Below are positions 4,270 to 31,665 of a stretch of 32,000 nucleotides of DNA, piece after piece. The DNA lies in contig NC_014408.1 of the NCBI RefSeq assembly GCF_000145295.1, positions 120,001 to 152,000 on the forward strand, given 5' to 3'. The notes under the pieces were generated by a model, which ran no database searches, had not been told where the DNA came from, and saw nothing but the letters and a program-made list of their open reading frames with translations. This stretch comes from Methanothermobacter marburgensis str. Marburg (lineage in GTDB: Archaea > Methanobacteriota > Methanobacteria > Methanobacteriales > Methanothermobacteraceae). Numbering within the stretch: position 1 is the stretch's first letter; each line of letters opens with the position of its first letter. The translations under genes were made by a program, and so were the position numbers.

Positions 4270-4280
4270 GGAGTGTTAAA

Positions 4281-11606: not shown

Positions 11607-11610
11607 TGTA

Positions 11611-12120: not shown

Positions 12121-12135
12121 CTGACCACCATCATG

Positions 12136-17942: not shown

Positions 17943-18695
17943 CTAATCAAGTATTATCCTCTCAGGGTGGCTGTATATGTTGAACCTTCTGCCCCTTACA
18001 AATCCCAGCATTGTAAGACCGGTCTTCCCTGCAGCCTCATACCCTGATGATGTTGGGGCGGCGTTCGATGCTATGATGGGAACCCCGGCACGCACAACCT
18101 TTATAAGCATATCCGCGGGCATCCTGCCACTGTAGACCATGAAGCTCCTGGAGAAGTTAACACCGTCCATGGCCCCGGAGCCCAGGACCTTATCAACCGC
18201 CACATGTCTGCTAACATCCTCAAACACCCTGAATTCATCCCCGGTCACAAGGGCGGCAACATGCGTACCTCCAGTCAGCCTCCACACGGTTGCTGCCTTC
18301 ACCATCCGCCTGAATGCATCGAATATGTCCTCAGCCCTCACCCTGAAGTCTGAGTCAACTGGTTCCACCATCTCAACCCTCTGCCTCCATCCACCGAAGC
18401 AATCAGAGCCCATAACAAGCTCACGCCTTATCTCAAGGTCCTCTGATTCTATCTCAACGTCGATGAGGTTCTCTGTGATATCCATGGATCTTATATCATC
18501 CACCGAGTCCACGAGCCCCTCGCCGAGAAGGTAGCCTGTTGCGAATTCCTTAAGGGCAGCGGGACTTGCAGTGAAGCGCTGCTCCAGACCCCCATTTATC
18601 CTTATACGCACCTCAAGGTCATTCACGATTCTTTCAGGGACCCTCCGCATCTCGTCATCCACACGGAACGCCTCAACCTCTCTGTAAAGTGACAT
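17943..18695 (-). CDS. fdhD: Formate dehydrogenase accessory sulfurtransferase FdhD
   Basis: A 250-aa ORF with the FdhD C-terminal pattern (SGRMPADMLIKVVRAGVPIIASNAAPTSSG). The loop GSDCFGGW has one Cys, whereas E. coli FdhD has a CxxC (alignment not verified). Confidence 0.85.
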   Translation of the reverse strand: MSLYREVEAFRVDDEMRRVPERIVNDLEVRIRINGGLEQRFTASPAALKEFATGYLLGEGLVDSVDDIRSMDITENLIDVEIESEDLEIRRELVMGSDCFGGWRQRVEMVEPVDSDFRVRAEDIFDAFRRMVKAATVWRLTGGTHVAALVTGDEFRVFEDVSRHVAVDKVLGSGAMDGVNFSRSFMVYSGRMPADMLIKVVRAGVPIIASNAAPTSSGYEAAGKTGLTMLGFVRGRRFNIYSHPERIILD

Positions 18696-18735
18696 TCATC
18701 CACCACCTCTCATCTAAAAACATATATTCCCCCTG

Positions 18736-18764
18736 GTTTAACAGTTAAACAGATGTTTAAACAT
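18736..18764. promoter_or_regulatory. Two adjacent perfect palindromes in the fdhD / nuoE-like divergent promoter (candidate operator)
   Basis: GTTTAAC-A-GTTAAAC (18736-18750) and ATGTTTAAACAT (18753-18764) share the GTTTAA(A)C core. They sit between AT-rich TATA-like boxes at 18720-18727 (minus-strand gene) and 18773-18780 (plus-strand gene). Confidence 0.45.
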
Positions 18765-18825
18765 TCATCCTAATTAATATGAATGCGACACTAAAATGGA
18801 TCTCACATTTAAGTGGAGGTTTCTG

Positions 18826-19275
18826 ATGGATAAGAAATTGAAGGGGATATTCTCTGGCTACACAGGCCATGCCTCAGAGATCATACCCATCCTCCAGGAT
18901 ATTCAGGATGTCTACGGCTATCTGCCGGAACATGCCCTGGAGGAGGTTGCTGGTTTCACAGGGGTCAGTAAAACACATGTATACGGGGTTGCAACCTTTT
19001 ATGCCCAGTTCAGGTTCAAACCAAAGGGAAGGAAGCACATAATGGTCTGTACAGGAACAGCGTGCCATGTGAGTGGGGCTGAACAGGTTCTGGATGCCCT
19101 TGAGAGGCACCTTGGCATCGGTGAGGGGGACGTCACAGAGGACATGGAGTACTCCCTGGAATCTGTGGGATGCATTGGCTGCTGCTCCCTGGCTCCATGT
19201 GCCATGGTGAACGATGAGGTTGTATCACGCATAAAGCCATCAAGGGTAAGCAAAATTTTCCCAAAAAAGTCTTAG
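18826..19275 (+). CDS. NuoE/HoxE/HydC-like thioredoxin-fold [2Fe-2S] ferredoxin subunit
   Basis: It has the [2Fe-2S] ligand pattern CTGTAC...CIGCCSLAPC and the conserved YGVATFY motif. I prefer the ATG at 18826 (GGAGG 6 nt upstream) to the ORF-track start at 18796. Confidence 0.85.
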   Translation: MDKKLKGIFSGYTGHASEIIPILQDIQDVYGYLPEHALEEVAGFTGVSKTHVYGVATFYAQFRFKPKGRKHIMVCTGTACHVSGAEQVLDALERHLGIGEGDVTEDMEYSLESVGCIGCCSLAPCAMVNDEVVSRIKPSRVSKIFPKKS

Positions 19276-19276
19276 A

Positions 19277-21148
19277 GTGTTTAAAATGTTTGAAGATACT
19301 GCAGGAAGGGCACTGGATGAATACATGTCCCTCTTCAGGGACGAACCGGTGATATTCCTGGGTTCAGCAACCTGTGGAAGATCCGCGGGGGCTCATGAAA
19401 TAGAGAGGGTATTGCTTGAGAGGGCTTCTGAGCTCTCAGTTGAATGCAGCATTGTACACACTGGATGCATGGGCCTCTGCTACGCCGAACCCATGGTTAC
19501 CGTATTCAACGGTGATACCCGTGGCGCCATCTATGGACCAGTGAACAGGAGACTTGCAAAGAGGATAATTCAGGAGCTCGCTGATGGTGAAGAATTCTCA
19601 GCCATTGGCTCTCTTAATGTGGCCTTCAATGGTGACTCATTTGAACCCTCCTACAGCATTGACTTCATGGAGAAACAGTCAAGGAGGATACTCAGAAGAG
19701 GCGGTCTCATAGACCCTGAGAACATCAATCATTACCTGGCGACAGGAGGATACCGGGGGCTCCTCAGGGCACTGGAGATGAAACCTGAGGATATCATTGA
19801 AGAGGTTAAGGATTCCGGACTCAGGGGCCGTGGGGGGGCAGGATTCCCCACCTGGCTCAAGTGGAGCCTCTGCCGCCAGGAGGAATCCGATGTGAAGTAC
19901 CTGGTATGCAACGCCGACGAGGGCGACCCGGGTGCCTTCATGAACCGTTCACTCATAGAGGGGGACCCCCACTCCCTCCTGGAGGGGATACTCATAGCAT
20001 CATATGCTGTGGGTGCAGAGGAGGCCTACATCTACTGCAGGGCAGAGTACCCCCTTGCCCTTGAAAGACTCAGAACCGCAATATCTGACCTCCGGGATCT
20101 CGGACTCCTAGGGGAGGACATCCTTGACTCGGGCTTCAGCCTTGATATAAGGATAAAGGAGGGGGCAGGGGCATTTGTATGTGGAGAGGAGACAGCCCTC
20201 ATAGCATCCATTGAGGGTAAAAGGGGGATGCCCCGTACCAGACCACCATTCCCAACAACAAGCGGCCTTTGGGGGAAGCCAACTGTTATAAACAATGTGG
20301 AGACACTTGCAGCTGTCTCAATGATAATGCAGCATGGTCCAGAGTACTTCAACACCCCGGGAACGGAGGGGAGTCCCGGGACCAAGACCTTCTCCCTTGT
20401 GGGAGATGTGAGGAGAACCGGGCTCATAGAGGTCCCCCTGGGCACAAGCCTGAGGGAGGTCATCCACGACATTGGTGGGGGTGTAAGGGACGGTGAGCTC
20501 AAGGCCGTCCAGATAGGGGGACCATCAGGCGGATGCCTCCCGGCCGAACTTGTTGACACGGGCATAGACTATGATTCACTGACATCTGCCGGCGCAATAA
20601 TGGGTTCAGGGGGCCTCGTGGTTTTATCTGACCATACATGCATGGTTGAACTTGCAAGGTACTTCCTTGAGTTCACTCAGCGGGAATCATGCGGAAAGTG
20701 TGTCCCGTGCCGTGTGGGTACAAGGCAGATGCTCATGATACTCAATGATATAGTTGAGGGTTCAGGAAGAGAGGAGGACCTGGAGATTCTGAGGGACATC
20801 GCAGAAACCGTCAGGGCAGCCTCCCTCTGTGGCCTTGGCCAGACATCCCCCAACCCTGTTCTAACCACACTCAGGTACTTTGAAAGGGAATACCGGGATC
20901 ACATAAACGGAAAATGCACCGCAGCATCATGCAGCCAGCTCATGCACTACCTCATAGAAGCGGAAAAATGTGATGGATGCATGGCATGCCTGAAGACATG
21001 TCCTGCAGACGCCATTGAGGGTTCAAAGGATGAGGTGCATGTTATAGATCAGGAAAGTTGCCTCAAGTGTGGGTCCTGCCTCGACACATGTAAGAGAGAT
21101 GCTGTTCTGAGGGTTCCGGGGCCATACTCCCCGGCCAATCAGGACTGA
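19277..21148 (+). CDS. NuoF/HydB-like FMN- and NAD(P)H-binding iron-sulfur flavoprotein with extra N- and C-terminal cluster domains
   Basis: It has the FMN motif [13 protein letters not shown], the nucleotide site [17 protein letters not shown] and the N3 cluster [12 protein letters not shown]...LCGLGQT. It also has a four-Cys N-terminal thioredoxin-like domain ([19 protein letters not shown]) and two C-terminal CX2CX2CX3C(P) motifs ([23 protein letters not shown]). The start is GTG at 19277 or ATG at 19286. Confidence 0.88.
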
Positions 21149-22056
21149 TAGTAGGGGGACCTTCTTCTGATGGCCTCAAGAAAGAGTTCACGGAGACCCT
21201 CAAGGTCACCGGAGCTGAGGGCTTCCTTGGTGTCAACCAGGTTGTCATTCCGGAGGAGGCATGGCTTAAGCTTCCCATCAGGGGTTACCCTCAGCCTTGT
21301 ACAGTTTGCACAGAACCTCGTGTTGTCCATGGGCCTCACAACCTCCACCTCCCCGTCCCCGATGAAGTACTTCTTGCGGTCCTGCATGAACTTCCTTGTC
21401 ATTATACGGTCAGCCATCTCTGCCAGTTCAGCCTCAATGGGGGTTATGTCGCAGTGGTACCTCTCCACCCCATTATCAGGGCAGCTGTCGGTTTTCAGTA
21501 GTTCTATTATCTGCAGCACCGCGCCCTGCTGACGGCAGAACTCAAACATGTCCCATATCTCATGGTGATTGACACCCCTCAGTATCACCATGTTTATCTT
21601 GACAGGGTCGAGGCCGGCCATAACGGCACCTTCTATTCCCGCCTTAACCCTCTCAAGGTAGTCCTTCCTGGTTATGAACCGGTAGGTTTCAGGTTTGAGG
21701 GTGTCGAAGCTGACATTGACCCGGTCAAGCCCGGCATCCCTCAGGGGGACGCTGAGGTCCTCAAGGAGGGTCCCGTTGGTTGTTATGGAGATATCCCTGA
21801 ATCCGATACTGTTTATCTTCTCGACTATCTCAACAATATCATCCCTTATGAGGGGCTCGCCACCTGAAAGCCTTATTTTCTTCACACCAAGGTCAGAGGC
21901 CACCCTGCATATGTTCTCTATATCCTCTGGGCTCATCTCCTCGTCTGAACGTAAGATCCCGTCCCGGTGGCAGTAGATACAGCTGACATTGCAGCGCCCC
22001 GTCACAGATATTCTCAGCGATACCAGCGGTCTTCTGTGGTTATCATGGACCTGCAT
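21139..22056 (-). CDS. moaA: GTP 3',8-cyclase (molybdenum/tungsten cofactor biosynthesis, radical SAM)
   Basis: A 305-aa ORF with the radical-SAM motif CNVSCIYCH and the C-terminal cluster [18 protein letters not shown]. Its 3' end overlaps the nuoF-like 3' end by 10 bp in convergent orientation. Confidence 0.92.
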
Positions 22057-22070
22057 TCTCTACCCCGATA

Positions 22071-22754
22071 TTAGTCTGGTCTTTTTATGATGAGATCAAC
22101 CTTTTGATGTTTAAGGCTTTCTGTATCAAGGGCATCCACCATGCCGAGAACAGTCCTTGCTATGAAGTTCTGGACGAAGGGGTTCAGGGGGACGGGTTTT
22201 CCATTTACCCTGAGGAGAACCCTATCAGGCTGGCTCTTACAGTTTGTATCATCTGCATCACCCTGAACCTTTGCCTTTGCAAACTCTCTGCATGATTCAA
22301 AGCCGCACTTACCGCAGTTGAGGTCCTGAAGGAGGCCGTAGCTTCTTCTTTCTATGAGCTCAATCAGGTCATCCACTTCATCGATTTTGAATGGATCAAC
22401 AACCTTCAGGGTGAATTCTCCCGGTGTGGATGTTGATATGTTGGCATACTCCATTGACTTGAAGCCCTCAACCACAAGGAAGTCGATGTCGTCCAGCATC
22501 TCAAGGACACCCACAACCTCAGGGAGGTCCATCCCCCTCTCGATAAGGAAGAAGGTTTCCCTTCCAGTTCCTGCAACTATCTCTGCACCGGCCTTCCGGT
22601 GCCTGTCAGTGTCCTTGCCTGGAAAATCAAATCCCCCATGGGTATGCTTGAGGGTCGCGACCCGGTAACCCGCATCCACGAGTTTTCTGACGATTTTCTC
22701 AACCAGGGCGGTTTTGCCGGTGTCCTTGGTGCCTGTCACCCATACTATCCTCAT
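22071..22754 (-). CDS. mobB: MobB-like P-loop protein fused to a CX2CX4CX16C Fe-S domain
   Basis: The N-terminal Walker A (VTGTKDTGKT) and overall MobB pattern are followed by NCGKCGFESCREFAKAKVQGDADDTNC, the RnfB/AcsC-type putative Fe-S cluster motif, and an uncharacterised tail of about 50 aa. It lies 14 bp upstream of moaA on the same strand, so it probably forms an operon with it. Confidence 0.8.
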   Translation of the reverse strand: MRIVWVTGTKDTGKTALVEKIVRKLVDAGYRVATLKHTHGGFDFPGKDTDRHRKAGAEIVAGTGRETFFLIERGMDLPEVVGVLEMLDDIDFLVVEGFKSMEYANISTSTPGEFTLKVVDPFKIDEVDDLIELIERRSYGLLQDLNCGKCGFESCREFAKAKVQGDADDTNCKSQPDRVLLRVNGKPVPLNPFVQNFIARTVLGMVDALDTESLKHQKVDLIIKRPD

Positions 22755-22826
22755 ACTTTCACCTCTTCATAAACTTTATTTTATGTGGGGATAAATTTTC
22801 ACTATAAAAAATTAGCTGAAGATAAC

Positions 22827-25490
22827 ATGAAGGGGACTGTAAAATTCAGGATCGATGGAAGGGAAGTTGAGGCAGCCCGGGGGATGACGGTTCTCGAGGC
22901 AGCCCTTGCAAACGGCATCTATATACCGAACCTCTGTTTCAGGGAGGGTATTGAACCATTTGGGGGCTGCAGGCTCTGTCTGGTTGAGAACAACGAGGGG
23001 CGTCTGGTCACGGCATGTGAAACACCTGCAGAGGATGGTTCTGAGTTCATATCAGAGTCTGAAAGGATAAACAGGATCAGAAGAACCACTCTATCTCTGA
23101 TAATAGCTGACCACAGCAGGGATTGTCTTGCATGCCCCGCATCAGGTGACTGCAGACTCCAGGAGCTTTCATCGTACCTCAACGTATCTGATGGGGACCT
23201 TGAGAGGCTGAGGCCTGAGCTTTCAGGGATTGATGTGGATGAATCCAACCCGTTTTTCCTGAGGAACCACGATAAGTGCATCCTCTGCGGCATATGTGTC
23301 CGTGTCTGCAGGGGACTGGGTGCAGAGGCGGTTGATTTTGCATACAGGGGCCATGACACAAGGATAGCCACCTTCATGGACAGGGATATACTTGATTCAA
23401 GCTGCGTCTCATGCGGTGAATGCGTCGAGGCATGCCCGGTGGGCGCCCTCCTACCCAGGACTGAGAGACCCTCCACCGAGGTGAGGACTGTATGCCCCTA
23501 CTGCGGCGCCGGCTGCGAGATATACCTCGGGGTGAGGGGGAACCGGGTTGTGAGTTCAAGGGGTGTCCCTGATAGCCCTGTTAACCAGGGAAGGCTATGC
23601 GTGAAGGGGAGGTTCGCCCTTAAATTTGTAAACAGTCCCGAAAGACTTAAAAAACCCCTGATAAAGGTTGATGGGGAGTTTGTAGAGGTAGAATGGGATG
23701 AGGCCATCTCAGTTGTGGCCGAAAGGCTCTCTGAATACACTGGGGAAGAGTTTGCGGCTGTGGCCTCTGCCAAGTGCACCAATGAGGAGAACTATCTGCT
23801 GCAGAAGTTCACAAGGGCCGTTATGGGGTCAGGGAACATTGACCACTGCGCAAGGCTATGCCATGCCCCATCACTTACCGGTCTCAGAATGAGCCTGGGC
23901 AGCGGTGCAATGACCAACTCCATATCTGAACTGGGGGCTGCCGGGTGTATACTGGCAGTGGGAACCAACCCAACAGAGACACACCCTGTAACCTCCTACA
24001 GGGTAATCAGGGCCCTGAGGTCACGTGCAAGGCTGGTTGTGGTGGATCCAAGGAAAACCCGGTTATCAGAACTTGCAGATATCCATCTCCAGAACAGACC
24101 GGGGTCTGACATCCCACTTTTAATGGCAATGTGCCGCTTCATACTGGAGGAGGGCCTCCACGACAGCGAATTCATAGATTCCCGCACAGAGAAATTTGAG
24201 GACTTCAGAGACGCTGTCATGGCCCTGGATCTTGATGAGGTGGAGAGGATAACCGGGGTTAACGTTAAGGACATAAGGAGAGCCGCAATAATGTACGCAT
24301 CCAATTCCCCGGCATCCATAATATATTCAATGGGCATCACCCAGCACGTTAATGGGACTGGCAATGTGCTTGCACTCAGCAACCTGGCGCTTCTTACAGG
24401 TAACATCGGTATAAAATCAGCCGGCATCAACCCGCTGAGGGGTCAGAACAACGTTCAGGGGGCCTGTGATATGGGGGCGCTTCCCGACCTCCTCCCGGGG
24501 TATCAGGGCATTGGTGAGGCTGCAGGGAAATTCTCTGAGAAATGGGGTTCACCTATCCCCCCGGCAGGGTTGACACTTCCTGAGATGTTTGATGCCGCAA
24601 GGGACGGAAAAATAAGGTGCATGTACATAATGGGTGAGAACCCACTTCTGAGCGAACCTGACATTGAAAGGACCCGGGAGGCCCTTGAGGGCCTTGAATT
24701 CCTTGTGGTCCAGGATATATTCCTCACAGAGACAGCCGAACTTGCCGATGTGGTTCTGCCCGCGGCATCCTTTGCAGAGAAGGACGGGACATTCACCAAC
24801 ACCGAGAGAAGGGTTCAGCTTCTGAGAAAGGCGCTGGATGCCCCGGGGGATGCTCTCCCTGACTGGCAGATAATCTCCATGATTGCAGGGCGGATGGGAA
24901 GGGAGGACTTTGATTATGAATCAGCGTCCAGAATATTCGATGAGATAAGGGAACTTGTACCCTCATATGCTGGCATCTCCCATGAAAGGCTGAAATCTGG
25001 AGGGATACAGTGGCCCTGCACATCAGAGGAGGACGCTGGAACAGGATATCTTCACTCTGAAGAATTCCCAACACCCACAGGAAGGGCATCGTTCCTGCTG
25101 CCTGATTACCAGTTCAGGGGGGTCCCGGAGGAGTATCCCCTGGTCCTTGTGACAGGGCGAAACCTCTACCAGTACCACACAAGGTCCATGACTGCAAGGG
25201 TGGAGGAACTGGAATCATTCTCAGACCATGAGGAGCTTCTCATGAACCCCGCTGACGCCTCCTCTATGGGTATAAGGGAGGGGGATACTGTTGAGGTCAC
25301 ATCAGAGAGGGGCTCCCTCAGGGTGAGGGCAGGGGTTACAGATGAGGTGATGGAGGGCGTGGTATTCATGACATTCCACTTTGCAGATGCCCCTGCAAAT
25401 GTCCTCACAGGCGGAGACAGGGACCCCTTTTCAGGGATGCCTGGACTCAAGTTCACACCGGTCAGGGTGTGTCGCGTCCAGCTAAGATAA
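22827..25490 (+). CDS. Formate dehydrogenase alpha-subunit homologue of the NAD-linked type (NuoG-like N-terminus plus Cys-type molybdo/tungstopterin catalytic domain)
   Basis: The N-terminus has a [2Fe-2S] pattern CX10CX2CX12C, the His-ligated cluster motif HSRDCLACPASGDC and two ferredoxin motifs (CILCGICVRVC, CVSCGECVEACP). Then come the MopB cluster CPYCGAGC...C and the active-site stretch NIDHCARLCHAPS, which has a Cys-His pair where E. coli FdhF has Sec-His. I prefer the ATG at 22827 to the GTG at 22785. Confidence 0.88.
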   Translation: MKGTVKFRIDGREVEAARGMTVLEAALANGIYIPNLCFREGIEPFGGCRLCLVENNEGRLVTACETPAEDGSEFISESERINRIRRTTLSLIIADHSRDCLACPASGDCRLQELSSYLNVSDGDLERLRPELSGIDVDESNPFFLRNHDKCILCGICVRVCRGLGAEAVDFAYRGHDTRIATFMDRDILDSSCVSCGECVEACPVGALLPRTERPSTEVRTVCPYCGAGCEIYLGVRGNRVVSSRGVPDSPVNQGRLCVKGRFALKFVNSPERLKKPLIKVDGEFVEVEWDEAISVVAERLSEYTGEEFAAVASAKCTNEENYLLQKFTRAVMGSGNIDHCARLCHAPSLTGLRMSLGSGAMTNSISELGAAGCILAVGTNPTETHPVTSYRVIRALRSRARLVVVDPRKTRLSELADIHLQNRPGSDIPLLMAMCRFILEEGLHDSEFIDSRTEKFEDFRDAVMALDLDEVERITGVNVKDIRRAAIMYASNSPASIIYSMGITQHVNGTGNVLALSNLALLTGNIGIKSAGINPLRGQNNVQGACDMGALPDLLPGYQGIGEAAGKFSEKWGSPIPPAGLTLPEMFDAARDGKIRCMYIMGENPLLSEPDIERTREALEGLEFLVVQDIFLTETAELADVVLPAASFAEKDGTFTNTERRVQLLRKALDAPGDALPDWQIISMIAGRMGREDFDYESASRIFDEIRELVPSYAGISHERLKSGGIQWPCTSEEDAGTGYLHSEEFPTPTGRASFLLPDYQFRGVPEEYPLVLVTGRNLYQYHTRSMTARVEELESFSDHEELLMNPADASSMGIREGDTVEVTSERGSLRVRAGVTDEVMEGVVFMTFHFADAPANVLTGGDRDPFSGMPGLKFTPVRVCRVQLR

Positions 25491-25654
25491 GATGTGTGCC
25501 ACCAAAACACTCATTTATATTATTATCTATTGCTGGCTGACCAGGGACGTGTGCTAACAACACACCAATATATATATATTTTTCTATTTGTTTTTTGTAG
25601 AAAATTATTATATACATAGTGGTTAAATGTGTGATTAACACACATGGTGACCCT
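25491..25654 (+). promoter_or_regulatory. fwd operon promoter region with TATA-like boxes and GTGTG/CACAC inverted repeats
   Basis: An AT-rich 130-160 bp spacer with TTTATATT (25513-25520), a (TA)n tract (25567-25580) and ATTATATA (25606-25613). It also has inverted repeats GTGTG-N7-CACAC (25549-25565) and ATGTGTG-N5-CACACAT (25627-25645). The transcription start is not determinable from sequence. Confidence 0.5.
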
Positions 25655-26131
25655 ATGCCGAAACATATAGTTTCTGGACTCAAATACATAGCAGCCGTAA
25701 ACCTAACAAAACAGGGCCATTCACAGAGAGAGATAGCCAAAGCTCTGAAGATAAACAGATCAACTGTTTCTCACTACCTCAACGGGAGAAACCTCTCATG
25801 GAGGTCAATAGAGATTGCAAGGGTAATAACAGAGATGTGTCCAAGGGATTTCCTTCTTCTCACCCACTCCCTTACACAGAACACAGAGATGACAAGGACG
25901 ATAGTGAAGACATGCCAGCAGAGGGAATTCAAGGGAAACGTCAGGAACTCATGTATTGGGTGCGGGCTATGTGTGGACACATGCCTCAGGAAGGCCATAA
26001 CCCTCCGAGACCTCAAGGCACATGTGGATTCCGAATGGTGCTGCGGGTGTCTCATCTGTGTGGATATGTGTCCAACTGATTCTATAGAAATAAAGGAGGT
26101 AGAAATTGATGGAAACGACCGAAGTAATTGA
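25619..26131 (+). CDS. fwdH: FwdH: helix-turn-helix domain fused to a 2x[4Fe-4S] ferredoxin domain (first gene of the fwd operon)
   Basis: Its position is that of fwdH in the known fwdHFGDACB order. The N-terminal HTH is [25 protein letters not shown], and the C-terminal motifs are [11 protein letters not shown] and [12 protein letters not shown]. The start is GTG at 25619 or ATG at 25655. Confidence 0.8.
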
Positions 26132-27158
26132 AGGTAAGAATATTACCGTGGAGCGGACCGGCGAAGAAAACAGAAAGTTGATCTTCCAGGATTGCCTCTG
26201 CGCTGTGTGTGGACTGTGTGGCGAGATATGCCCGGTCAGTGCAATCGAGGTTAACCCAACAGGTGCAATGGTCAGAACAGAACAGGACGAGTCAAAGATA
26301 CTTATCGATGAGAACAAATGTGTCCTCTGCGGTATGTGCAGTTCAATCTGCCCATTCCAGGCTCTTGACCTTCAGATCGATGGAACATCCATAAAAGAAC
26401 TTGCAGAATACCCTAAAATCCTTAAATCAGCCGAAATTGATGATGAAACATGCATACAGTGCAAGGCATGTGAAACAGCATGTCCACAGGACGCCATAAC
26501 CATAACAAGGGAACTTCCAGAAAGGAAGGACCTCATCACAGGTGAAATCGAAATAGACAAGGACACCTGTATATACTGTGGCATGTGCGAGGAAATGTGC
26601 CCGGTTGATGCCATAGAGATAGAACACCAGATACCAAGTTCATCAAGCCCAACCGTTGCAACCGACATCAACGTGGACGAGGACAAATGTGTTCACTGCG
26701 GAATATGTAAGAGGATCTGCCCTGTTGACGCCATAATGCAGGTCTGCAGGATCTGCCCATACGGCGAATACGAGATAAAGGTCCCTGAGGTTACAGGAAC
26801 CTCCTACATCGACCCTGAGCTCTGTGTGAACTGCGGCTGGTGCCAGGAGATCTGCCCTGTTGATGCTGCAACAGTGACTAAGCCATTCGAGGGAGAACTG
26901 ATAATCGACCAGGATACCTGTCAGGCATGTGAGACCTGCGTGATGGCATGCCCATGCAACGTTCTCTCATTCCCGAAACCAGAGAAATCCGGTGAAAAAC
27001 CAACCAAGCTCTACAAGGACGAAAGATTCTGCATATACTGCGGAGCATGTGAGAGATCATGCCCTGTGAACGCCATAGAGGTTAAGAGGAGCAGAATAAA
27101 TACAACTCCAATCAAATCAAAGGCATGGAAGAACGCCTTTGAATCACTACTCAAATAA
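26109..27158 (+). CDS. fwdF: Tungsten formylmethanofuran dehydrogenase subunit F (polyferredoxin, eight [4Fe-4S] motifs)
   Basis: It has eight CX2CX2CX3CP motifs ([12 protein letters not shown] ... [12 protein letters not shown]). AGGAGGT lies 8 nt upstream of the ATG at 26109. Confidence 0.92.
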
Positions 27159-27172
27159 ATGGAGGTAATCAG

Positions 27173-27421
27173 ATGGCAATTGGACTTAAGGCATACCCTG
27201 AACTCTGCCATGGATGCGGAAACTGTGTGATCGCATGTCCCGTGAACGCCCTCAGAAGCCCGGAAGTTGCCGGTGGAAAGGGCCCAACAGATGATGTTGA
27301 GATCATCATGATAGTGGAGGACGGGGTTGTAAACATAAAAAACCCTGACCTTTGCGGAAAATGCGGCACATGTGTTGAAAGCTGCCCTGTGGACGCAATA
27401 AGACTGGAGGAGTTAGAATGA
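27173..27421 (+). CDS. fwdG: Tungsten formylmethanofuran dehydrogenase subunit G (2x[4Fe-4S] ferredoxin)
   Basis: An 82-aa ORF with the motifs CHGCGNCVIACP and CGKCGTCVESCP and a GGAGGT SD. Its stop overlaps the fwdD start (ATGA). Confidence 0.9.
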   Translation: MAIGLKAYPELCHGCGNCVIACPVNALRSPEVAGGKGPTDDVEIIMIVEDGVVNIKNPDLCGKCGTCVESCPVDAIRLEELE

Positions 27422-27810
27422 TGGTCATACTCAACACAGGAAGGACAATATGGCAGGGACAGGCCATAGAATCAGGTAAGGATCTTAAAATGTACGTGGA
27501 TGCAGCTGCAATAATTCAGATGAACGCTGACATGATGAAGCAGCTCGGGATAAACGAAGGAGACAACGTCAAGGTCATATCAGAATATGGAGATGTGGTT
27601 GTCAAGGCTGTTGAAGCAAAGGAACCACTACCAGATGGAATGGTCTACATACCAATGGGCCCATGGGCCAACAGGGTCATAAGACCAGATACAGATTCAA
27701 CAGCAACACCCAGCTTTAAGAATGTACCGGTGGAGATCATACCCACCGATGAAGAGGTTCCTGACATGCCCACCCTCATGAAGGTCTACGGTAAGGTAGG
27801 TCAGATTTAA
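27418..27810 (+). CDS. fwdD: Tungsten formylmethanofuran dehydrogenase subunit D (pterin dinucleotide-binding beta-barrel domain)
   Basis: A 130-aa ORF with the typical FwdD/FmdD pattern (VILNTGRTIWQGQAIESGK ... MVYIPMGPWAN) at the expected position in the operon. Confidence 0.9.
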   Translation: MMVILNTGRTIWQGQAIESGKDLKMYVDAAAIIQMNADMMKQLGINEGDNVKVISEYGDVVVKAVEAKEPLPDGMVYIPMGPWANRVIRPDTDSTATPSFKNVPVEIIPTDEEVPDMPTLMKVYGKVGQI

Positions 27811-27832
27811 TTGGTTCAGCGGGAGGATTCAA

Positions 27833-29542
27833 ATGGAATACATAATCAAAAACGGATTTGTTTACTGTCCTCTTAACAACGTCGATGGAGAGAAGATGGA
27901 CATCTGCGTCAGGGATGGTAAAATAGTTGAGAGCGTCAGTGACTCCGCAAAGGTCATTGATGCATCTGGAAAAATTGTGATGCCTGGAGGTGTCGACCCA
28001 CACTCCCACATAGCAGGTGCAAAGGTCAACGTGGGAAGGATGTACAGGCCAGAAGACAGCCGAAGGGACGCTGAAAAGTTCAAGGCAGGAAGGGCCGGAA
28101 GCGGTTTCTCAGTACCATCAACCTTCATGACAGGTTACAGGTACGCCCAGATGGGTTACACCACCGCAATGGAGGCGGCCATGCCACCACTCCTTGCAAG
28201 GCACACCCATGAGGAGTTCCATGACACACCCATAATAGACCATGCGGCATACCCACTCTTCGGTAACAACTGGTTCGTGATGGAGTACCTCAAGGAGGGA
28301 GACGTGGATGCATGCGCAGCCTACGCCTCATGGCTCCTCAAGGCAACAAAGGGTTACACAATAAAGATAGTTAACCCCGCAGGTACAGAGGCCTGGGGAT
28401 GGGGTGGAAACGTCCATGGAATCCATGACCCTGCTCCATACTTTGACATAACACCTGCAGAGATCATAAAGGGACTCGCAGAGGTTAACGAGAAACTCCA
28501 GCTACCACACTCAATACACCTCCACTGTAACGACCTGGGACACCCTGGAAACTATGAGACAACCCTTGCATCCTTCGACGTGCCAAAGAACATAAAGGCA
28601 AACCCTGCAACAGGTGAAAGGGATACAGTTTTATACGCCACACACGTCCAGTTCCACAGCTACGGCGGAACCACATGGAGGGACTTCGTATCAGAGGCAC
28701 CAAAGATCGCAGACTACGTCAACAAAAATGACCACATAGTCATAGACGTTGGTCAGATAACCCTTGATGAGACCACAACAATGACAGCCGACGGCCCAAT
28801 GGAATACGACCTCCACTCACTCAACGGCCTCAAATGGGCAAACTGTGACGTGGAACTCGAAACAGGTTCAGGTGTCGTCCCATTCATATACTCAGCAAGG
28901 GCACCTGTCCCAGCTGTCCAGTGGGCAATAGGTATGGAGTTATTCCTGCTTATCGACGACCCAGCAAAGGTCTGTCTCACAACAGACAGTCCAAACGCCG
29001 GTCCATTCACAAGGTACCCAAGGGTCATAGCCTGGCTCATGAGCAACAAGTACAGGATGAACCTCATCGAGGGAGAACTCCACAAGTGGGCCCAGAGGAA
29101 GAGTACCATAGCAACAGTTGACAGGGAATACACATTCTCAGAGATAGCCCAGATCACAAGGTCAACATCTGCAAAGGTCCTGGGTCTCAGCGAAACCAAG
29201 GGGCACCTTGGAGTCGGTGCAGATGCAGACATCGCGGTATACAACATCAACCCTGAAACAGTCGACCCATCAGTCGATTACATGGCAATTGAGGAAGGAT
29301 TCTCAAGGGCAGCATACGTCCTCAAGGATGGAGAAATAGTGGTTAAGGACGGAGAAGTAGTGGCCTCACCACATGGAAGAACCTACTGGGTTGACACCCG
29401 GGTTGATGAGTCAACCTACAACGAGGTACTTGCCAAGGTGGAGAGCAAATTCAAACAGTACTACTCTGTTAACTTTGCAAACTACCCTGTGCAGGACGAG
29501 TACCTGCCAAAATCCGCTCCAGTTAAAGGGGTGATGCTATGA
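27833..29542 (+). CDS. fwdA: Formylmethanofuran dehydrogenase subunit A (amidohydrolase-fold, formyl-MFR-forming site)
   Basis: A 569-aa ORF with the metal-binding GGVDPHSHI motif of the amidohydrolase superfamily at the expected position in the operon. Confidence 0.92.
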   Translation: MEYIIKNGFVYCPLNNVDGEKMDICVRDGKIVESVSDSAKVIDASGKIVMPGGVDPHSHIAGAKVNVGRMYRPEDSRRDAEKFKAGRAGSGFSVPSTFMTGYRYAQMGYTTAMEAAMPPLLARHTHEEFHDTPIIDHAAYPLFGNNWFVMEYLKEGDVDACAAYASWLLKATKGYTIKIVNPAGTEAWGWGGNVHGIHDPAPYFDITPAEIIKGLAEVNEKLQLPHSIHLHCNDLGHPGNYETTLASFDVPKNIKANPATGERDTVLYATHVQFHSYGGTTWRDFVSEAPKIADYVNKNDHIVIDVGQITLDETTTMTADGPMEYDLHSLNGLKWANCDVELETGSGVVPFIYSARAPVPAVQWAIGMELFLLIDDPAKVCLTTDSPNAGPFTRYPRVIAWLMSNKYRMNLIEGELHKWAQRKSTIATVDREYTFSEIAQITRSTSAKVLGLSETKGHLGVGADADIAVYNINPETVDPSVDYMAIEEGFSRAAYVLKDGEIVVKDGEVVASPHGRTYWVDTRVDESTYNEVLAKVESKFKQYYSVNFANYPVQDEYLPKSAPVKGVML

Positions 29543-30351
29543 GTGAAATAATATTAACTCCAAAGGAACAGCCTGAAGTGCCACTGGAGGCACCCAACAT
29601 CAAACCCGATGTATTCGCAGGAAAGTCAATAGACGAGATCAAAAACATCCAGATAATGTATGGTAACGAGGTCGTTAAACTGGGAGACTTCTTCGAGGTC
29701 AGCGGAGAACCAGCAGACGCAGCATCAGACATCAAGATCATCATCGACGGCGACGTATACAACACCAAGAGGATAGGCCAGGAGATGACAGCCGGCGAAA
29801 TCCTGGTGAAGGGTAACGTGAACATGTACGTCGGAGCCGGTATGAAAGGCGGCAGGATCACAGTTGAAGGCAACGCAGCCTCATGGGCCGGACAGGACAT
29901 GAGGGGAGGAGAACTTGAAATCCTTGGAAATGCGGCTGACTACGTTGGATCATCCTACCGTGGTGACTGGAGAGGTATGAGTGGTGGCGTCATAACAGTC
30001 CATGGAAACGCCGGAAACGAGATCGGAGAGTACATGAACGGCGGTAAGATCATCATCAAGGGCGACGTCAACATAATGCCTGGCATACACATGAACAACG
30101 GTCTCATAATCATCGAGGGCAACGCCGTTGCAAGGGTCGGCGGTGAAATGGCCGGCGGAACAATAATCGTAAAGGGAATGATACAGGAATTCCTTCCAGG
30201 ATTCAAGTACCTTGGTGTTGAAAAGGACATAGAGGTTAACGGGGAAACCTTCCCTGGAGCATTCTACAAGTTTGAAGGAGATCACGCAATTAAGGGAGCT
30301 AAGGGTATAGTCTATGCGGCTGTCGGATGCAACGGCCACATAGAACCCTAA
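29539..30351 (+). CDS. fwdC: Formylmethanofuran dehydrogenase subunit C (glutamate-synthase-C-like beta-helix)
   Basis: A 270-aa ORF with repeated G-x-x-G-x-x-M-x-G-G beta-helix turns (GNVNMYVGAGMKGGRITVEGNA...). Its start overlaps the fwdA stop (ATGA). Confidence 0.92.
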   Translation: MSEIILTPKEQPEVPLEAPNIKPDVFAGKSIDEIKNIQIMYGNEVVKLGDFFEVSGEPADAASDIKIIIDGDVYNTKRIGQEMTAGEILVKGNVNMYVGAGMKGGRITVEGNAASWAGQDMRGGELEILGNAADYVGSSYRGDWRGMSGGVITVHGNAGNEIGEYMNGGKIIIKGDVNIMPGIHMNNGLIIIEGNAVARVGGEMAGGTIIVKGMIQEFLPGFKYLGVEKDIEVNGETFPGAFYKFEGDHAIKGAKGIVYAAVGCNGHIEP

Positions 30352-30366
30352 CTGGAGGTAATTATC

Positions 30367-31665
30367 ATGGAATACGTGAAAAATGTGGTCTGCCCCTTCT
30401 GCGGAACCCTCTGTGATGATATCATCTGTAAGGTTGAGGACAACGAGATTGTCGGAACCATCAATGCATGCAGGATAGGTCACAGCAAGTTCGTGCATGC
30501 AGAGGGTGCAGTGAGGTACAAAAAACCACTCATAAGGAAGAATGGCGAATTCGTCGAGGTAAGCTACGATGAGGCCATAGACAAGGCTGCAAAGATTCTT
30601 GCAGAATCAAAGAGACCACTCATGTACGGGTGGAGCTGTACAGAGTGTGAAGCACAGGCTGTTGGAGTTGAACTTGCAGAGGAGGCCGGTGCAGTAATCG
30701 ATAACACAGCATCAGTCTGTCACGGACCATCAGTCCTTGCCCTCCAGGACGTGGGTTATCCTATCTGTACCTTCGGTGAGGTCAAAAACAGGGCTGACGT
30801 GGTGGTCTACTGGGGATGCAACCCCATGCACGCCCACCCAAGGCACATGTCAAGGAACGTATTTGCCCGCGGATTCTTCAGGGAAAGGGGAAGATCAGAC
30901 AGGACACTCATAGTCGTTGATCCGAGGAAAACTGACAGCGCAAAGCTTGCAGACATACACCTCCAGCTGGACTTTGACCGTGACTATGAACTTCTCGATG
31001 CAATGAGGGCATACCTCCTTGGAAACGAGATACTCTACGATGAGGTTGCAGGTGTACCAAGGGAGCAGATCGAAGAGGCTGTTGAGGTGCTCAAAAAGGC
31101 ACAGTTCGGTATACTCTTCTTCGGTATGGGTATAACCCACAGCAGGGGTAAACACAGGAACATTGACACAGCCATTATGATGGTTGAGGACCTCAATGAC
31201 TATGCAAAATGGACACTCATACCCATGAGGGGACACTACAACGTTACAGGTTTCAACCAGGTCTGCACCTGGGAGAGCGGATACCCATACTGTGTTGACT
31301 TCTCAGAGGGGGAGCCAAGGTACAACCCAGGGGAGACCGGTGCAAACGACCTTCTCCAGAATAGGGAGGCCGATGCGATGATGGTCATAGCCTCTGACCC
31401 TGGTGCCCACTTCCCACAGAGGGCACTTGAGAGGATGGCTGAGATCCCGGTCATTGCAATCGAGCCCCACAGGACCCCCACAACCGAGCTGGCTGACATC
31501 ATAATTCCACCGGCCATCGTGGGTATGGAGGCTGAGGGTACAGCCTACCGTATGGAGGGTGTCCCCATAAGGATGAAGAAGGTTGTTGACTCAGACCTCC
31601 TCTCAGACAGGGAGATCCTGGAGAGACTCCTTGAAAAGGTGAGGGAATACAGGGCCTCAAAGTAA
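30367..31665 (+). CDS. fwdB: Tungsten formylmethanofuran dehydrogenase subunit B (tungstopterin catalytic subunit)
   Basis: A 432-aa ORF with the N-terminal cluster motif CPFCGTLCDDIIC and the active-site stretch NTASVCHGPSV (Cys-His pair). GGAGGT lies upstream of the ATG. Confidence 0.92.
   Translation: MEYVKNVVCPFCGTLCDDIICKVEDNEIVGTINACRIGHSKFVHAEGAVRYKKPLIRKNGEFVEVSYDEAIDKAAKILAESKRPLMYGWSCTECEAQAVGVELAEEAGAVIDNTASVCHGPSVLALQDVGYPICTFGEVKNRADVVVYWGCNPMHAHPRHMSRNVFARGFFRERGRSDRTLIVVDPRKTDSAKLADIHLQLDFDRDYELLDAMRAYLLGNEILYDEVAGVPREQIEEAVEVLKKAQFGILFFGMGITHSRGKHRNIDTAIMMVEDLNDYAKWTLIPMRGHYNVTGFNQVCTWESGYPYCVDFSEGEPRYNPGETGANDLLQNREADAMMVIASDPGAHFPQRALERMAEIPVIAIEPHRTPTTELADIIIPPAIVGMEAEGTAYRMEGVPIRMKKVVDSDLLSDREILERLLEKVREYRASK

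Follow-up and report, generated by a model that had tools for sequence, protein, structure and literature searches.

A putative Type-1 bifurcating formate dehydrogenase gene cluster beside the fwd operon of Methanothermobacter marburgensis

The window analyzed here, a 32,000-nucleotide stretch of the M. marburgensis str. Marburg genome (NC_014408.1, positions 120,001 to 152,000), contains six genes of interest, MTBMA_c01330 to c01380, all of which were found at the coordinates given in the first-pass annotation (Table 1). Adjoining NuoE-like and NuoF-like genes and the formate dehydrogenase gene fdhA1 are interleaved with fdhD, moaA, and a mobB fusion, an arrangement that the family matches bear out. 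The cluster is also correctly placed directly upstream of fwd, as fdhA1 is followed on the same strand by fwdHFGDACB, the tungsten formylmethanofuran dehydrogenase operon (locus tags per PMC3087415).

Table 1. Genes and intergenic regions of the cluster, with positions numbered from the first nucleotide of the window
Feature	Position	Strand	Evidence
fdhD (MTBMA_c01330, D9PU44)	17943..18695	-	PF02634 E=4.6e-62; TIGR00129 291 bits, cut-off 141
fdhD / nuoE-like divergent intergenic region	18696..18825		Sequence inspection
NuoE-like, predicted BfuC subunit	18796..19275	+	PF01257 E=3.3e-50; 2Fe-2S_thioredx; NF005722 166, cut-off 141
NuoF-like, predicted BfuB subunit (MTBMA_c01350, D9PU46)	19277..21148	+	Complex1_51K, SLBB, NADH_4Fe-4S, C-terminal Fer4 dicluster
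moaA, archaeal type	21139..22056	-	NF001199 451 bits; TIGR02668 403 bits
mobB/Fe-S fusion (D9PU48)	22071..22754	-	NF011063 466 bits; PF03205 + PF04060
mobB / fdhA divergent region	22755..22826		Sequence inspection
fdhA1 (MTBMA_c01380, D9PU49)	22785..25490	+	TIGR01591 817 bits, cut-off 666
fwdHFGDACB (MTBMA_c01390-01450), context	25619..31665	+	NCBIfam FwdF/FwdD/FwdA/FwdC/FwdB matches above cut-offs

The divergent region between fdhD and the nuoE-like gene is A/T-rich, includes a TATA-like string (TAATTAATATGA), and is a candidate promoter. Two further TATA-like strings, CTTTATTTTA and CACTATAAAAAA, lie between mobB and fdhA, where the spacer measures 30 bp with GTG 22785 as the FdhA1 start or 72 bp with ATG 22827; the NCBI call is 887 aa. 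The 3' ends of moaA and the NuoF-like gene overlap convergently by 10 nt, and this tail-to-tail arrangement implies that fdhA requires a separate promoter. With two opposite-strand genes between them, nuoEF and fdhA do not form a single operon in M. marburgensis, which counts against reading their products as a joint enzyme.

The NuoE-like protein likely starts at ATG 18826, which has a GGAGG ribosome-binding site 7 nt ahead of it, and combines a 4-helix bundle with a thioredoxin-like domain. Its C1 [2Fe-2S] ligands (C85, C90, C126, and C130; CX4CX35CX3C) have the same spacing in alignment as C74/C79/C115/C119 of Tsi NfnC, and the PDB chains closest to it (1e-41 to 1e-38) are NfnC/StnA/HydC from bifurcating enzymes. 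The NuoF-like protein, for which 620-aa homologues indicate ATG 19286 as the likely start, has an FMN/NAD(H) site with an Asp beside the FMN within NADEGDPG, B1 [4Fe-4S] ligands (C472/C475/C478/C518), a B2 hinge site of one His and three Cys (C455/H542/C547/C552), and a C-terminal 2x[4Fe-4S] domain (B3/B4) with CX2CX2CX3C motifs at C565-C575 and C595-C605, which are the two extra motifs described at first pass. The four-Cys N-terminal domain described alongside them stands in part: the thioredoxin-like domain is present, with a putative B5 site at C33/C64/C68, the sole invariant N-terminal Cys residues and matched in solved BfuB proteins, but Leu28 occupies the canonical first Cys position of the CX4C motif and C57, although a majority Cys, is clade-specific. 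Alignment shows B2 and B3/B4 ligands present and B5 with three invariant Cys; B5 may hold a [2Fe-2S] cluster or Zn. All of the Bfu-specific residues named in PMC12018979 (the B2 His and three Cys, the CX2CX2CX3C pair, the FMN-side Asp, and the C1 ligands) are found, and conserved NAD-site residues suggest a preference for NAD over NADP.

A search of PDB sequences with the NuoF-like protein gives E=5e-213 to 3e-186 for solved bifurcating BfuB subunits (Caldicellulosiruptor saccharolyticus and Thermococcus sibiricus NfnB, Sporomusa ovata StnB, A. mobile NiFe-HydB, and A. woodii, T. maritima, and T. kivui HydB), versus 8e-128 for FdsB and 1e-112 for NuoF. Its AF2 model (pLDDT 78, pTM 0.79) gives full-length matches (∼600 columns) to bifurcating BfuB chains only, with TMq of 0.77 to 0.87, and spans ∼525 columns with FdsB and ∼400 with NuoF. 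By sequence and modeled fold, the pair is the BfuC/BfuB core of the bifurcating Bfu (HydABC/NfnABC) family, in agreement with the type proposed at first pass; bifurcation itself is a prediction. A plain NuoEF/FdsBG type was rejected, having weaker E-values and shorter fold coverage.

FdhA1 matches the formate dehydrogenase subunit alpha listed by NCBI for M. marburgensis with 100% identity and contains Fer2_4, NADH-G_4Fe-4S_3, two Fer4, Molybdop_Fe4S4, Molybdopterin, and Molydop_binding domains, confirming the NuoG-type N terminus described for it. Its cluster motifs are A1 [2Fe-2S] (C51/C62/C65/C78), A2 (H110/C114/C117/C123), A3/A4 (C165-C175 and C207-C217), and A5 (C237/C240/C244/C272). The string HCARLCHAPS is present, and C359-H360 aligns with the catalytic Cys-His of Rhodobacter capsulatus FdsA, with R552 also conserved; 77 to 80 of 80 relatives keep each of the five cluster motifs and the Cys-His-Arg triad. 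The active-site Cys column is occupied by Sec (TGA) in 31 of the 80 and by Cys in M. marburgensis. These features support a Cys-type Mo/W formate dehydrogenase that is intact and NuoG-like at its front end; it is predicted to be a Type-1 Fdh-BfuA, in which a BfuA-type part is fused to a Mo/W-bisPGD formate dehydrogenase.

A set of 57 related loci, nearly all of them bacterial, has nuoE, nuoF, and fdhA grouped on the same strand, and the gene order of the window, including fwd, is kept in Methanobacterium lacus (CP002551) and related metagenome-assembled genomes at 52 to 56% identity. All Methanobacteriaceae loci examined have fdhA1 immediately 5' of fwdH/fwdF. In neighbor-joining trees (midpoint-rooted, without bootstrap) of both NuoF and FdhA, the Methanobacteriales clade (the window and locus L003) sits beside the same Planctomycetota, Omnitrophota, Chloroflexota, and Spirochaetota loci, and the two distance matrices are correlated (Mantel r=0.42, 0/999 permutations). 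This congruent placement fits one joint acquisition, and the three genes were probably gained from bacteria in one event, in an ancestor shared by Methanobacterium and Methanothermobacter, the unit probably being split later by moaA-mobB and fixed beside fwd. The bacterial origin proposed at first pass is consistent with these trees and synteny, and is stated in PMC13135261.

The closest described relatives are the enzymes that Schut et al. 2022 (PMC9304861) class within the BfuABC family as Type-1 Fdh-Bfu, which are predicted and unpurified, with Carboxydothermus hydrogenoformans as the named example; according to that paper some Archaea have such operons, and its summary table lists Euryarchaeota. 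Like the M. marburgensis module, these have three subunits, with the BfuA pterin active site beside cluster A5 and a BfuB/BfuC core with FMN, B1, the B2 site, B3/B4, and C1. They differ in that the M. marburgensis bfuCB and bfuA are parted by the opposite-strand moaA-mobB and lie beside fwd, and in that the methanogen host neither imports nor grows on formate, making CO2 reduction likely. The closest solved B and C subunits are those of NfnABC/StnABC (Nfn-Bfu) of T. sibiricus, S. ovata, and C. saccharolyticus (PDB 9n5u, 8oh5, and 9bov; 50 to 54% identity, E to 5e-213, TMq 0.83 to 0.87), which share the three-Cys N-terminal site, B2 His and three Cys, B3/B4, and C1, but whose A subunit is an NADPH/FAD module with NADPH, not formate/CO2, as third substrate. 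HylABC-FdhF2 of Gottschalkia (Clostridium) acidurici is, in the accounts of Wang et al. 2013 given in PMC5861303 and PMC9304861, the only purified NAD+/ferredoxin-bifurcating formate dehydrogenase, with the reaction also proposed for the M. marburgensis module, 2 formate + 2 Fdox + NAD+ = 2 CO2 + 2 Fdred + NADH. By the same accounts it shares the NuoF-type bifurcating core but is a Type-3 enzyme, with its pterin subunit FdhF2 separate from HylA, a content of W and Sec, and a formate-oxidizing role in uric acid fermentation.

FdsABG(D) of R. capsulatus and Cupriavidus necator (PDB 6tg9 and 6vw7) is an NAD+-dependent formate dehydrogenase whose alpha subunit, like FdhA1, has a NuoG-like N terminus and a Cys-type Mo-bisPGD domain with an identical CAR(V/L)CH(S/A)P motif. 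It also has NuoE/NuoF-type partners, but FdsB is without the C-terminal 2x[4Fe-4S] domain, matches the NuoF-like protein far less well than BfuB does, and is non-bifurcating and without clusters B2 to B5 (PMC9304861). The best single PDB match of FdhA1 (9t1s_L, E=3.7e-202, residues 233 to 895) is to the catalytic pterin domain of the F420-dependent FdhAB of methanogens (PDB 9t1s and 7bkb); this FdhAB is without the NuoG-like N-terminal extension and has an FrhB-like F420/FAD subunit, not NuoEF, as partner.

Gene content, domains, ligands, synteny, congruent phylogeny, and presence in proteomes, together with the modeled fold, lead us to propose, with a probability of roughly 0.55, that the products of the three + strand genes form a soluble Type-1 Fdh-Bfu heterotrimer (FdhA1 as BfuA, NuoF-like as BfuB, and NuoE-like as BfuC) that reduces CO2 to anabolic formate. 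CO2/formate turnover would take place at a Cys-ligated Mo- or W-bisPGD center of FdhA1, with electrons passing along A5-A4/A3-A2-A1 to B1 and FMN of the NuoF-like subunit. At this point the flavin/B1/C1 site would couple NAD(H), ferredoxin, and formate/CO2, with NAD(H) at FMN and ferredoxin served via C1 and then B3/B4. In a host grown on H2 that can neither take up formate nor live on it, the enzyme would run physiologically as a confurcating one (NADH + 2 reduced ferredoxin + 2 CO2 -> 2 formate), and the product would supply a small anabolic demand, purine C2 via PurP and class III ribonucleotide reductase.

In published proteomes, intensities are ∼1-3e8 for the NuoF-like protein, ∼0.6-2e8 for the MobB fusion, ∼1-7e7 for FdhD, and 0-1.6e7 for FdhA1, the last ∼10-fold higher at 250 nM Ni, although such DIA values compare poorly between different proteins. 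FdhA1 accounts for ∼0.005% of total DIA intensity or less and was undetected in the H2/CO2-limitation data set, and the NuoE-like protein is absent from the published DIA proteomes; both observations count against the Fdh-Bfu trimer. In two of three data sets the intensity of the NuoF-like protein exceeds that of FdhA1 10- to 100-fold, a poor fit to a simple 1:1 complex, and co-expression of the two + strand units, put forward for testing at first pass, cannot be assumed.

FdhD is a sulfurtransferase that sulfurates the bis-PGD cofactor, and MoaA is the GTP 3',8-cyclase that opens Moco/Wco synthesis. To call these the cluster's own maturation genes was an overstatement, as FdhD and MobB outnumber FdhA1 in the proteomes; these two are probably needed as well for the W/Mo formylmethanofuran dehydrogenases, which are far more abundant, and FdhD, MoaA, and MobB are probably common to Fwd/Fmd and the Fdh cluster.

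An unlikely alternative is that on laboratory H2/CO2 the cluster amounts to an accessory or relic with weak expression, anabolic formate arising instead from the formate intermediate of Fwd/Fmd or an HDCR-like side activity of the Hdr-Fwd supercomplex; Fwd/Fmd or an HDCR-like activity is the source proposed in PMC10579436. This accords with the trace FdhA1 levels and with extracts assayed at 40 C, Ni-sufficient or Ni-limited, in which benzyl-viologen-linked Fdh activity was not measurable (PMC12350162); the missing activity and the proposed leakage both count against Fdh-Bfu. However, no ligand or catalytic residue has been lost, the unchanged order across Methanothermobacter and Methanobacterium at only 52 to 60% identity indicates purifying selection, and a trace enzyme could suffice for a small anabolic demand. 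Leakage is also hard to square with the formate auxotroph of Tanner et al. 1989, which, as cited in PMC3087415 and PMC10579436, is deficient in FDH activity with normal methanogenesis; the report of auxotrophs mentioned at first pass is real.

It is rather improbable that the two + strand units function mostly independently of each other, the NuoE/F-like pair as a ferredoxin:NAD(P)+ oxidoreductase, alone or with another partner, and FdhA1 as a ferredoxin-dependent CO2 reductase drawing electrons straight from ferredoxin or the neighboring Fwd polyferredoxins. The distinct transcription units, the constitutive excess of the NuoF-like protein with a Ni response in FdhA1 alone, the constant position beside fwdH/fwdF, and the ability of the Thermococcus onnurineus Fdh3 catalytic subunit alone to reduce ferredoxin are all compatible with this. 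Yet FdhA1 is 100- to 1,000-fold below FwdF and so not co-expressed with fwd, and DIA intensities are a weak basis for between-protein comparison. The one-strand grouping in the related loci, nearly all bacterial, also speaks against separate units, the congruent placement and correlated distances of NuoF and FdhA are those expected of a co-evolving complex, and FdhA1 retains the whole NuoG-type A1/A2 module, which docks a NuoEF-type core in all solved relatives. Similarly improbable is a non-bifurcating, FdsABG-like NAD(P)H-dependent CO2 reductase/formate dehydrogenase with the extra BfuB domains structural or an optional ferredoxin port: full-length FdhA1, front end included, matches R. capsulatus FdsA (E=1.8e-197), homologues are labeled formate dehydrogenase (NADP+) alpha subunit by JGI and NADP-dependent in PMC13135261, non-bifurcating enzymes also have NuoF homologues (PMC5861303), and B5 may carry Zn, but the NADP+ label reflects alpha-subunit orthology, not an assay, bifurcation can accommodate Zn at B5, as in T. 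sibiricus NfnABC, the B2 and B3/B4 sites reportedly missing in non-bifurcating homologues are present, and the NuoF-like protein is clearly nearer proven bifurcating enzymes in sequence and fold.

The genes themselves are not new: PMC3087415 already lists fdhA1 as a second FdhA (2011), Type-1 Fdh-Bfu was defined and its operons predicted in Archaea/Euryarchaeota in 2022 (PMC9304861), and an NADP-dependent FDH of bacterial origin in Methanobacterium and Methanothermobacter was mentioned in 2026 (PMC13135261). As supposed at first pass, no biochemical study of a NuoEF-FdhA module in methanogens was found in the searchable literature. Formate is required for purines and class III ribonucleotide reductase, and FDH-negative mutants are formate auxotrophs (PMC3087415). 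Where M. marburgensis obtains its anabolic formate is called an open question in PMC10579436. MTBMA_c15220/30, once taken for an F420-dependent FdhAB, is ElpAB, a truncated FdhAB paralogue in which ElpA is without the pterin domain and which has no Fdh activity (PMC12350162). With ElpAB set aside, no stand-alone FDH candidate other than FdhA1 is left to provide anabolic formate. That candidacy is what the present analysis adds to genes already known.

All six genes of the Fdh cluster are assigned by Pfam and NCBIfam with scores far above the curated cut-offs, bearing out the gene content proposed in the first-pass annotation, and the sequence signatures read there are confirmed as well: FdhA contains the HCARLCHAPS motif, and the NuoF-like protein has two ferredoxin motifs at its C-terminus. 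The FdhA ORF is 100% identical to the NCBI entry 'formate dehydrogenase subunit alpha [Methanothermobacter marburgensis]'. Locus tags are derived from the published assignment of fwdHFGDACB to MTBMA_c01390-01450 (PMC3087415), together with the order in which UniProt entries D9PU44-D9PU51 appear in proteome tables from the literature. The NuoE-like gene likely starts at ATG 18826, which has a GGAGG ribosome-binding site, and the NuoF-like gene likely at ATG 19286; for FdhA there are two alternative starts, GTG 22785 or ATG 22827. Rfam and tRNA scans of the window gave zero matches.

Genes, other ORFs and cofactor sites of the Fdh region (gene positions in window nucleotides, site positions in residues)
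Feature	Position	Strand	Identifier or remark
purB	4266-5630	+	adenylosuccinate lyase
ORF, 312 aa	5698-6636	+	
nrdD	6839-9154	+	class III anaerobic ribonucleotide reductase
IS630-family transposase, first ORF	9423-9914	+	model positions 3-132 of 299
IS630-family transposase, second ORF	9952-10449	+	model positions 154-298 of 299
ORF, 367 aa	10503-11606	-	
ORF opposite UGSC-family gene	11606-12124	+	
UGSC-family '(seleno)protein' homologue	11611-12120	-	187 bits
ORF, 284 aa	16327-17181	-	
fdhD	17943-18695	-	MTBMA_c01330
NuoE-like	18796-19275	+	MTBMA_c01340
NuoF-like	19277-21148	+	MTBMA_c01350 (D9PU46)
moaA	21139-22056	-	MTBMA_c01360
mobB-FeS	22071-22754	-	MTBMA_c01370
fdhA1	22785-25490	+	MTBMA_c01380 (D9PU49)
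FwdH-annotated ORF	25619-26131	+	
FdhA1 site A1	C51/62/65/78		ligands
FdhA1 site A2	H110/C114/C117/C123		ligands
NuoF-like site B1 [4Fe-4S]	C472, C475, C478, C518		aligned positions
NuoF-like hinge site B2 (His + 3 Cys)	H542, C455, C547, C552		aligned with T. sibiricus NfnB H524, C437, C529, C534
NuoF-like sites B3/B4, two CX2CX2CX3C motifs	C565/C568/C571/C575 and C595/C598/C601/C605		aligned with five solved BfuB chains
NuoF-like Asp adjoining FMN, within 'NADEGDPG'	D214		corresponds to T. sibiricus D195
NuoE-like site C1 [2Fe-2S], CX4CX35CX3C	C85, C90, C126, C130		spacing as T. sibiricus NfnC C74/C79/C115/C119

As far as sequence can show, FdhA1 is a real formate dehydrogenase. It scores 817 bits against TIGR01591 (cut-off, 666), and it matches the Molybdopterin and Molydop_binding domains over their entire length. 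Within a single 901-aa polypeptide it carries Fer2_4, NADH-G_4Fe-4S_3, two Fer4, Molybdop_Fe4S4, Molybdopterin, and Molydop_binding domains, and it thus has the arrangement that defines Type 1 Fdh-Bfu enzymes, in which sites A1 to A4 and the pterin domain by A5 are fused in the A subunit (BfuA) of the electron-bifurcating (Bfu) family. The catalytic portion of FdhA1 has a solved F420-dependent formate dehydrogenase as its nearest match (9t1s_L, E=3.7e-202), and Rhodobacter capsulatus FdsA can be aligned along the whole protein, NuoG-like front included (E=1.8e-197); in both, the catalytic Cys/Sec-His and Arg fall opposite C359-H360 and R552. Ligands of A1, A2, A3/A4, and A5 are conserved in 76 to 80 of 80 relatives. 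An in-frame TGA places selenocysteine at the C359 column in 31 of the 80, all from non-Methanobacteriales loci, and Cys occupies this position in FdhA1 and in the Methanobacteriaceae-like loci L001 to L003.

The NuoF-like and NuoE-like subunits have the features of the bifurcating enzymes. In a search of all PDB sequences with the NuoF-like protein, B subunits of proven bifurcating Bfu enzymes score E=5e-213 to 3e-186, namely those of NfnABC of C. saccharolyticus and T. sibiricus, StnABC of S. ovata, NiFe-HydABCSL of A. mobile, and HydABC of A. woodii, T. maritima, and T. kivui, whereas matches to non-bifurcating FdsB (8e-128) and complex I NuoF (~1e-112) are weaker; the best PDB matches of the NuoE-like protein are likewise C subunits of bifurcating enzymes. 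The ferredoxin domain, B2, FMN/NAD(H) plus B1, and C1 features, listed among the defining Bfu sites in the T. sibiricus structure paper (PMC12018979), are each found in these two sequences. The B2 His is reported to be present in virtually all Bfu B subunits and missing from non-bifurcating homologues (PMC12018979), and the four B2 residues are kept in 62 to 63 of 68 NuoF sequences from related loci. Two stretches of the FMN/NAD(H) site (12 and 11 residues) are identical in the solved enzymes. After alignment, the B2 and B3/B4 ligands stand at the positions of those in solved BfuB subunits. The only structures on which an AlphaFold2 model of the NuoF-like protein (37-sequence alignment, pLDDT 78, pTM 0.79) superposes over ~600 columns are BfuB chains of bifurcating enzymes (TMq, 0.77 to 0.87); the superposition covers ~525 columns (of 620 residues) for FdsB and ~400 for NuoF.

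[quoted passage not shown] The first Cys of the canonical CX4C motif is Leu28, and it is also missing in StnB and T. sibiricus NfnB, whose three-Cys pattern holds a [2Fe-2S] cluster in one solved structure and Zn in the other; the B5 site of the NuoF-like protein may hold either.

Membership of other formate dehydrogenase families was considered and rejected. The non-bifurcating, NAD-dependent FdsABG enzymes align with FdhA1 along its full length, but their beta subunit has neither the C-terminal ferredoxin domain nor the B2 to B5 sites, and the NuoF-like protein carries this domain as well as sites that FdsB is defined without. HylABC-FdhF2 (Type-3 Fdh-Bfu) has a pterin subunit, FdhF2, separate from the H-cluster-less, HydA-like HylA, whereas the pterin domain of FdhA1 is fused to its NuoG/HydA-like N-terminus in one polypeptide. 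In the F420-dependent FdhAB enzymes of methanogens, FdhA has no NuoG-like extension and its partner, FdhB, is an FrhB-like F420/FAD subunit; FdhA1 has a 230-residue NuoG-like N-terminus, and the main ORFs of the window yielded no FrhB-like gene. Thermococcus onnurineus Fdh3 is not a close analogue, as its NADP module is NfnL/GltD-like rather than NuoF-like.

The window enzyme is best placed with the Type 1 Fdh-Bfu enzymes, and Bfu-type coupling to both NAD(H) and ferredoxin is predicted for it. By analogy with solved Bfu enzymes, NAD(H) would bind at the FMN, and electrons would pass between the pterin centre and FMN along A5-A4/A3-A2-A1-B1. NAD(H) is suggested over NADP(H) only because the 11-residue nucleotide-site stretch is unchanged relative to NAD-binding BfuB subunits; in Escherichia coli NuoF, NADH specificity is set by a Glu in this motif. 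A 2026 paper (PMC13135261) labels the enzyme NADP-dependent; we take this label to be an annotation carry-over, since it comes without a cited assay and JGI annotates the homologues as 'formate dehydrogenase (NADP+) alpha subunit'. In vivo, NADH and reduced ferredoxin would be confurcated onto CO2. M. marburgensis lacks a formate carrier and cannot use formate for growth (PMC3087415), and by our own estimate, with formate micromolar and CO2 high, the potential of the formate/CO2 couple lies well above the standard value.

The nuoE, nuoF, and fdhA genes of the window all lie within 6.7 kb but form two plus-strand units split by moaA-mobB; nuoF and the convergent moaA overlap at their 3' ends, and a short divergent spacer separates mobB from fdhA. 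Homologues of all three occur together on one strand in 57 related loci, nearly all of them bacterial. In a neighbor-joining (NJ) tree of FdhA, the window protein is monophyletic with the Methanobacteriaceae-like loci L001 to L003, and in that of NuoF with L003; in both trees the sister group is formed by the same loci from Planctomycetota, Omnitrophota, Chloroflexota, and Spirochaetota. The distance matrices of the two proteins are correlated (Mantel r=0.42, 0/999 permutations). The placement of a bacterial donor is only indicative, because these NJ trees, built with fast alignment settings and without bootstrap, are midpoint-rooted and lack support values. The exact gene order of the window (PHI, fdhD(-), nuoEF, moaA(-), mobB(-), fdhA, fwd) is also found in Methanobacterium lacus (CP002551) and three MAG loci, with FdhA identities of only 52 to 56%. 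The simplest reading is that the nuoE-nuoF-fdhA unit was acquired once from bacteria before the Methanobacterium/Methanothermobacter split, then rearranged and long retained. Homologues of Methanotrichaceae and Thermoplasmatota are placed elsewhere among bacteria. The NuoG-fused FdhA homologues of three acetoclastic loci (L043, L048, and L058; Methanocrinis/Methanotrichaceae/Methanothrix) form a separate clade, and neither nuoE nor nuoF was found in their available flanks (10 kb on each side for L058), so their electron partner must differ.

Co-transcription of fdhA1 with the downstream fwd genes is rejected, as the two are separated by 129 bp of A/T-rich DNA containing TATA-like boxes and oligo-T runs, and protein levels differ 100- to 1000-fold. 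The FwdH-annotated ORF between fdhA1 and fwdF carries a helix-turn-helix at its N-terminus (Pfam HTH_3, E=2.7e-6, above the cut-off) and a 2x[4Fe-4S] region at its C-terminus, an architecture shared with its M. lacus orthologue (10909-11358 in the related locus L081), and it looks more like a DNA-binding, maybe redox-sensing, Fe-S protein than an enzyme subunit. Farther upstream, the split IS630-family transposase is either a frameshifted or pseudogenised copy or subject to programmed frameshifting. The UGSC-family homologue is nearly mirrored by an ORF of equal length on the opposite strand; the class of M. marburgensis reportedly lacks a selenocysteine pathway (PMC13135261). The 312-, 367-, and 284-aa ORFs have no NCBIfam match at E<=1e-5.

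Protein levels were taken from data-independent acquisition (DIA) intensities in the source data of a 2025 Nature paper (PMC12350162), in which the total is ~2e11.

Published DIA intensities of proteins from the Fdh cluster and of FwdF
Protein	Ni series	Fe series	H2/CO2 series
NuoF-like (D9PU46)	~1-2e8, constitutive	5e5-1e7	2-3e8
FdhA1 (D9PU49)	0-2e6 at 5 uM, 1.0-1.6e7 at 250 nM, 2.6e6 at 10 nM		not detected
FdhD	1-2e7	2-7e7 (Fe and H2/CO2 series)	2-7e7 (Fe and H2/CO2 series)
MobB	0.6-0.8e8	1-2e8 (Fe and H2/CO2 series)	1-2e8 (Fe and H2/CO2 series)
FwdF	~2e9	~0.7-3.7e9	

FdhA1 rises ~10-fold from 5 uM to 250 nM Ni and then falls, while the NuoF-like protein is constant and 10 to 100 times more intense, so that the two units differ in apparent stoichiometry and in regulation. 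The NuoE-like protein, MoaA, and FwdH were not detected in these DIA proteomes, and spectral counts of the NuoF-like protein and FdhA1 in purified Elp-Hdr fractions do not exceed those of decoy entries and were set aside. FdhA1 is thus made but scarce, and appears substoichiometric to the NuoF-like protein. Extracts of M. marburgensis assayed at 40 C showed no benzyl-viologen-linked Fdh activity (PMC12350162), and this, with the scarcity of FdhA1, weighs against a simple, abundant 1:1:1 complex. Both observations are compatible with a low-flux anabolic enzyme, and under them the NuoEF-like core could also have a role of its own. FdhD and MobB, which the first-pass annotation regarded as the enzyme's own maturation proteins, are unlikely to be dedicated to FdhA1, because both exceed it in the proteomes; they probably also serve Fwd/Fmd. 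We give roughly one chance in ten to a further-reaching reading, in which a constitutive BfuB/BfuC core, in large excess over FdhA1, would be the methanogen's soluble ferredoxin:NAD+ oxidoreductase, with FdhA1, raised ~10-fold when nickel is limiting, an on-demand third module that turns the core into an electron-confurcating CO2 reductase and the sole dedicated source of anabolic formate. If true, a NuoF-type (Bfu) bifurcating enzyme of a methanogen would for the first time have a defined role, and its core would exemplify Bfu function with substoichiometric BfuA.

M. marburgensis requires formate for purine C2 (PurP) and as the reductant of class III ribonucleotide reductase (PMC3087415), and a 1989 report by Tanner et al., as related in PMC3087415, describes FDH-negative mutants as formate auxotrophs. 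The nrdD and purB genes lie 9 to 13 kb upstream of the Fdh cluster, maybe by coincidence. Formate synthesis was long credited to the F420-dependent 'FdhAB' (MTBMA_c15220/30), but in 2023 Casini et al. (PMC10579436) found this protein nearly missing from the proteome, raising the question of where biomass formate originates; the alternatives named were only Fwd/Fmd or an HDCR-like activity, and the main text never mentions NAD or discusses the window cluster. The 2025 Nature paper identifies MTBMA_c15220/30 as ElpAB, in which ElpA has no pterin domain and ElpA-containing fractions have no Fdh activity (PMC12350162). This leaves FdhA1 as the only stand-alone pterin-containing, FDH-type catalytic subunit reported for M. 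marburgensis, FwdB/FmdB apart.

Kaster et al. (PMC3087415) named FdhD and left NuoEF uncommented, and in 2022 Schut et al. (PMC9304861) defined the Bfu family and included Euryarchaeota in a summary table. Consistent with the earlier impression that the module had no biochemical description, a search of the literature found no biochemical or genetic study of it. The kind of enzyme is therefore known, its class had been predicted, and this member is catalogued but uncharacterised, and novelty is limited to that. The proposal of a possibly bifurcating formate dehydrogenase is upheld by sequence, fold, and evolution, with its function a prediction from sequence and model.

The physiological implication is worthwhile and directly testable, in an organism that is a workhorse of methanogenesis biochemistry and power-to-gas biomethanation. 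Being thermostable and selenocysteine-free, the enzyme is possibly an attractive CO2-reduction catalyst. If the assignment is right, it would be the first characterised Type-1 Fdh-Bfu of any organism, and the cluster would be a candidate locus for the 1989 formate auxotroph. The sole stand-alone formate dehydrogenase of M. marburgensis would then be a bacterial-type NADH/ferredoxin-confurcating enzyme, which would close a gap in metabolic models of this organism and connect a methanogen's ferredoxin pool to its NAD(H) pool.
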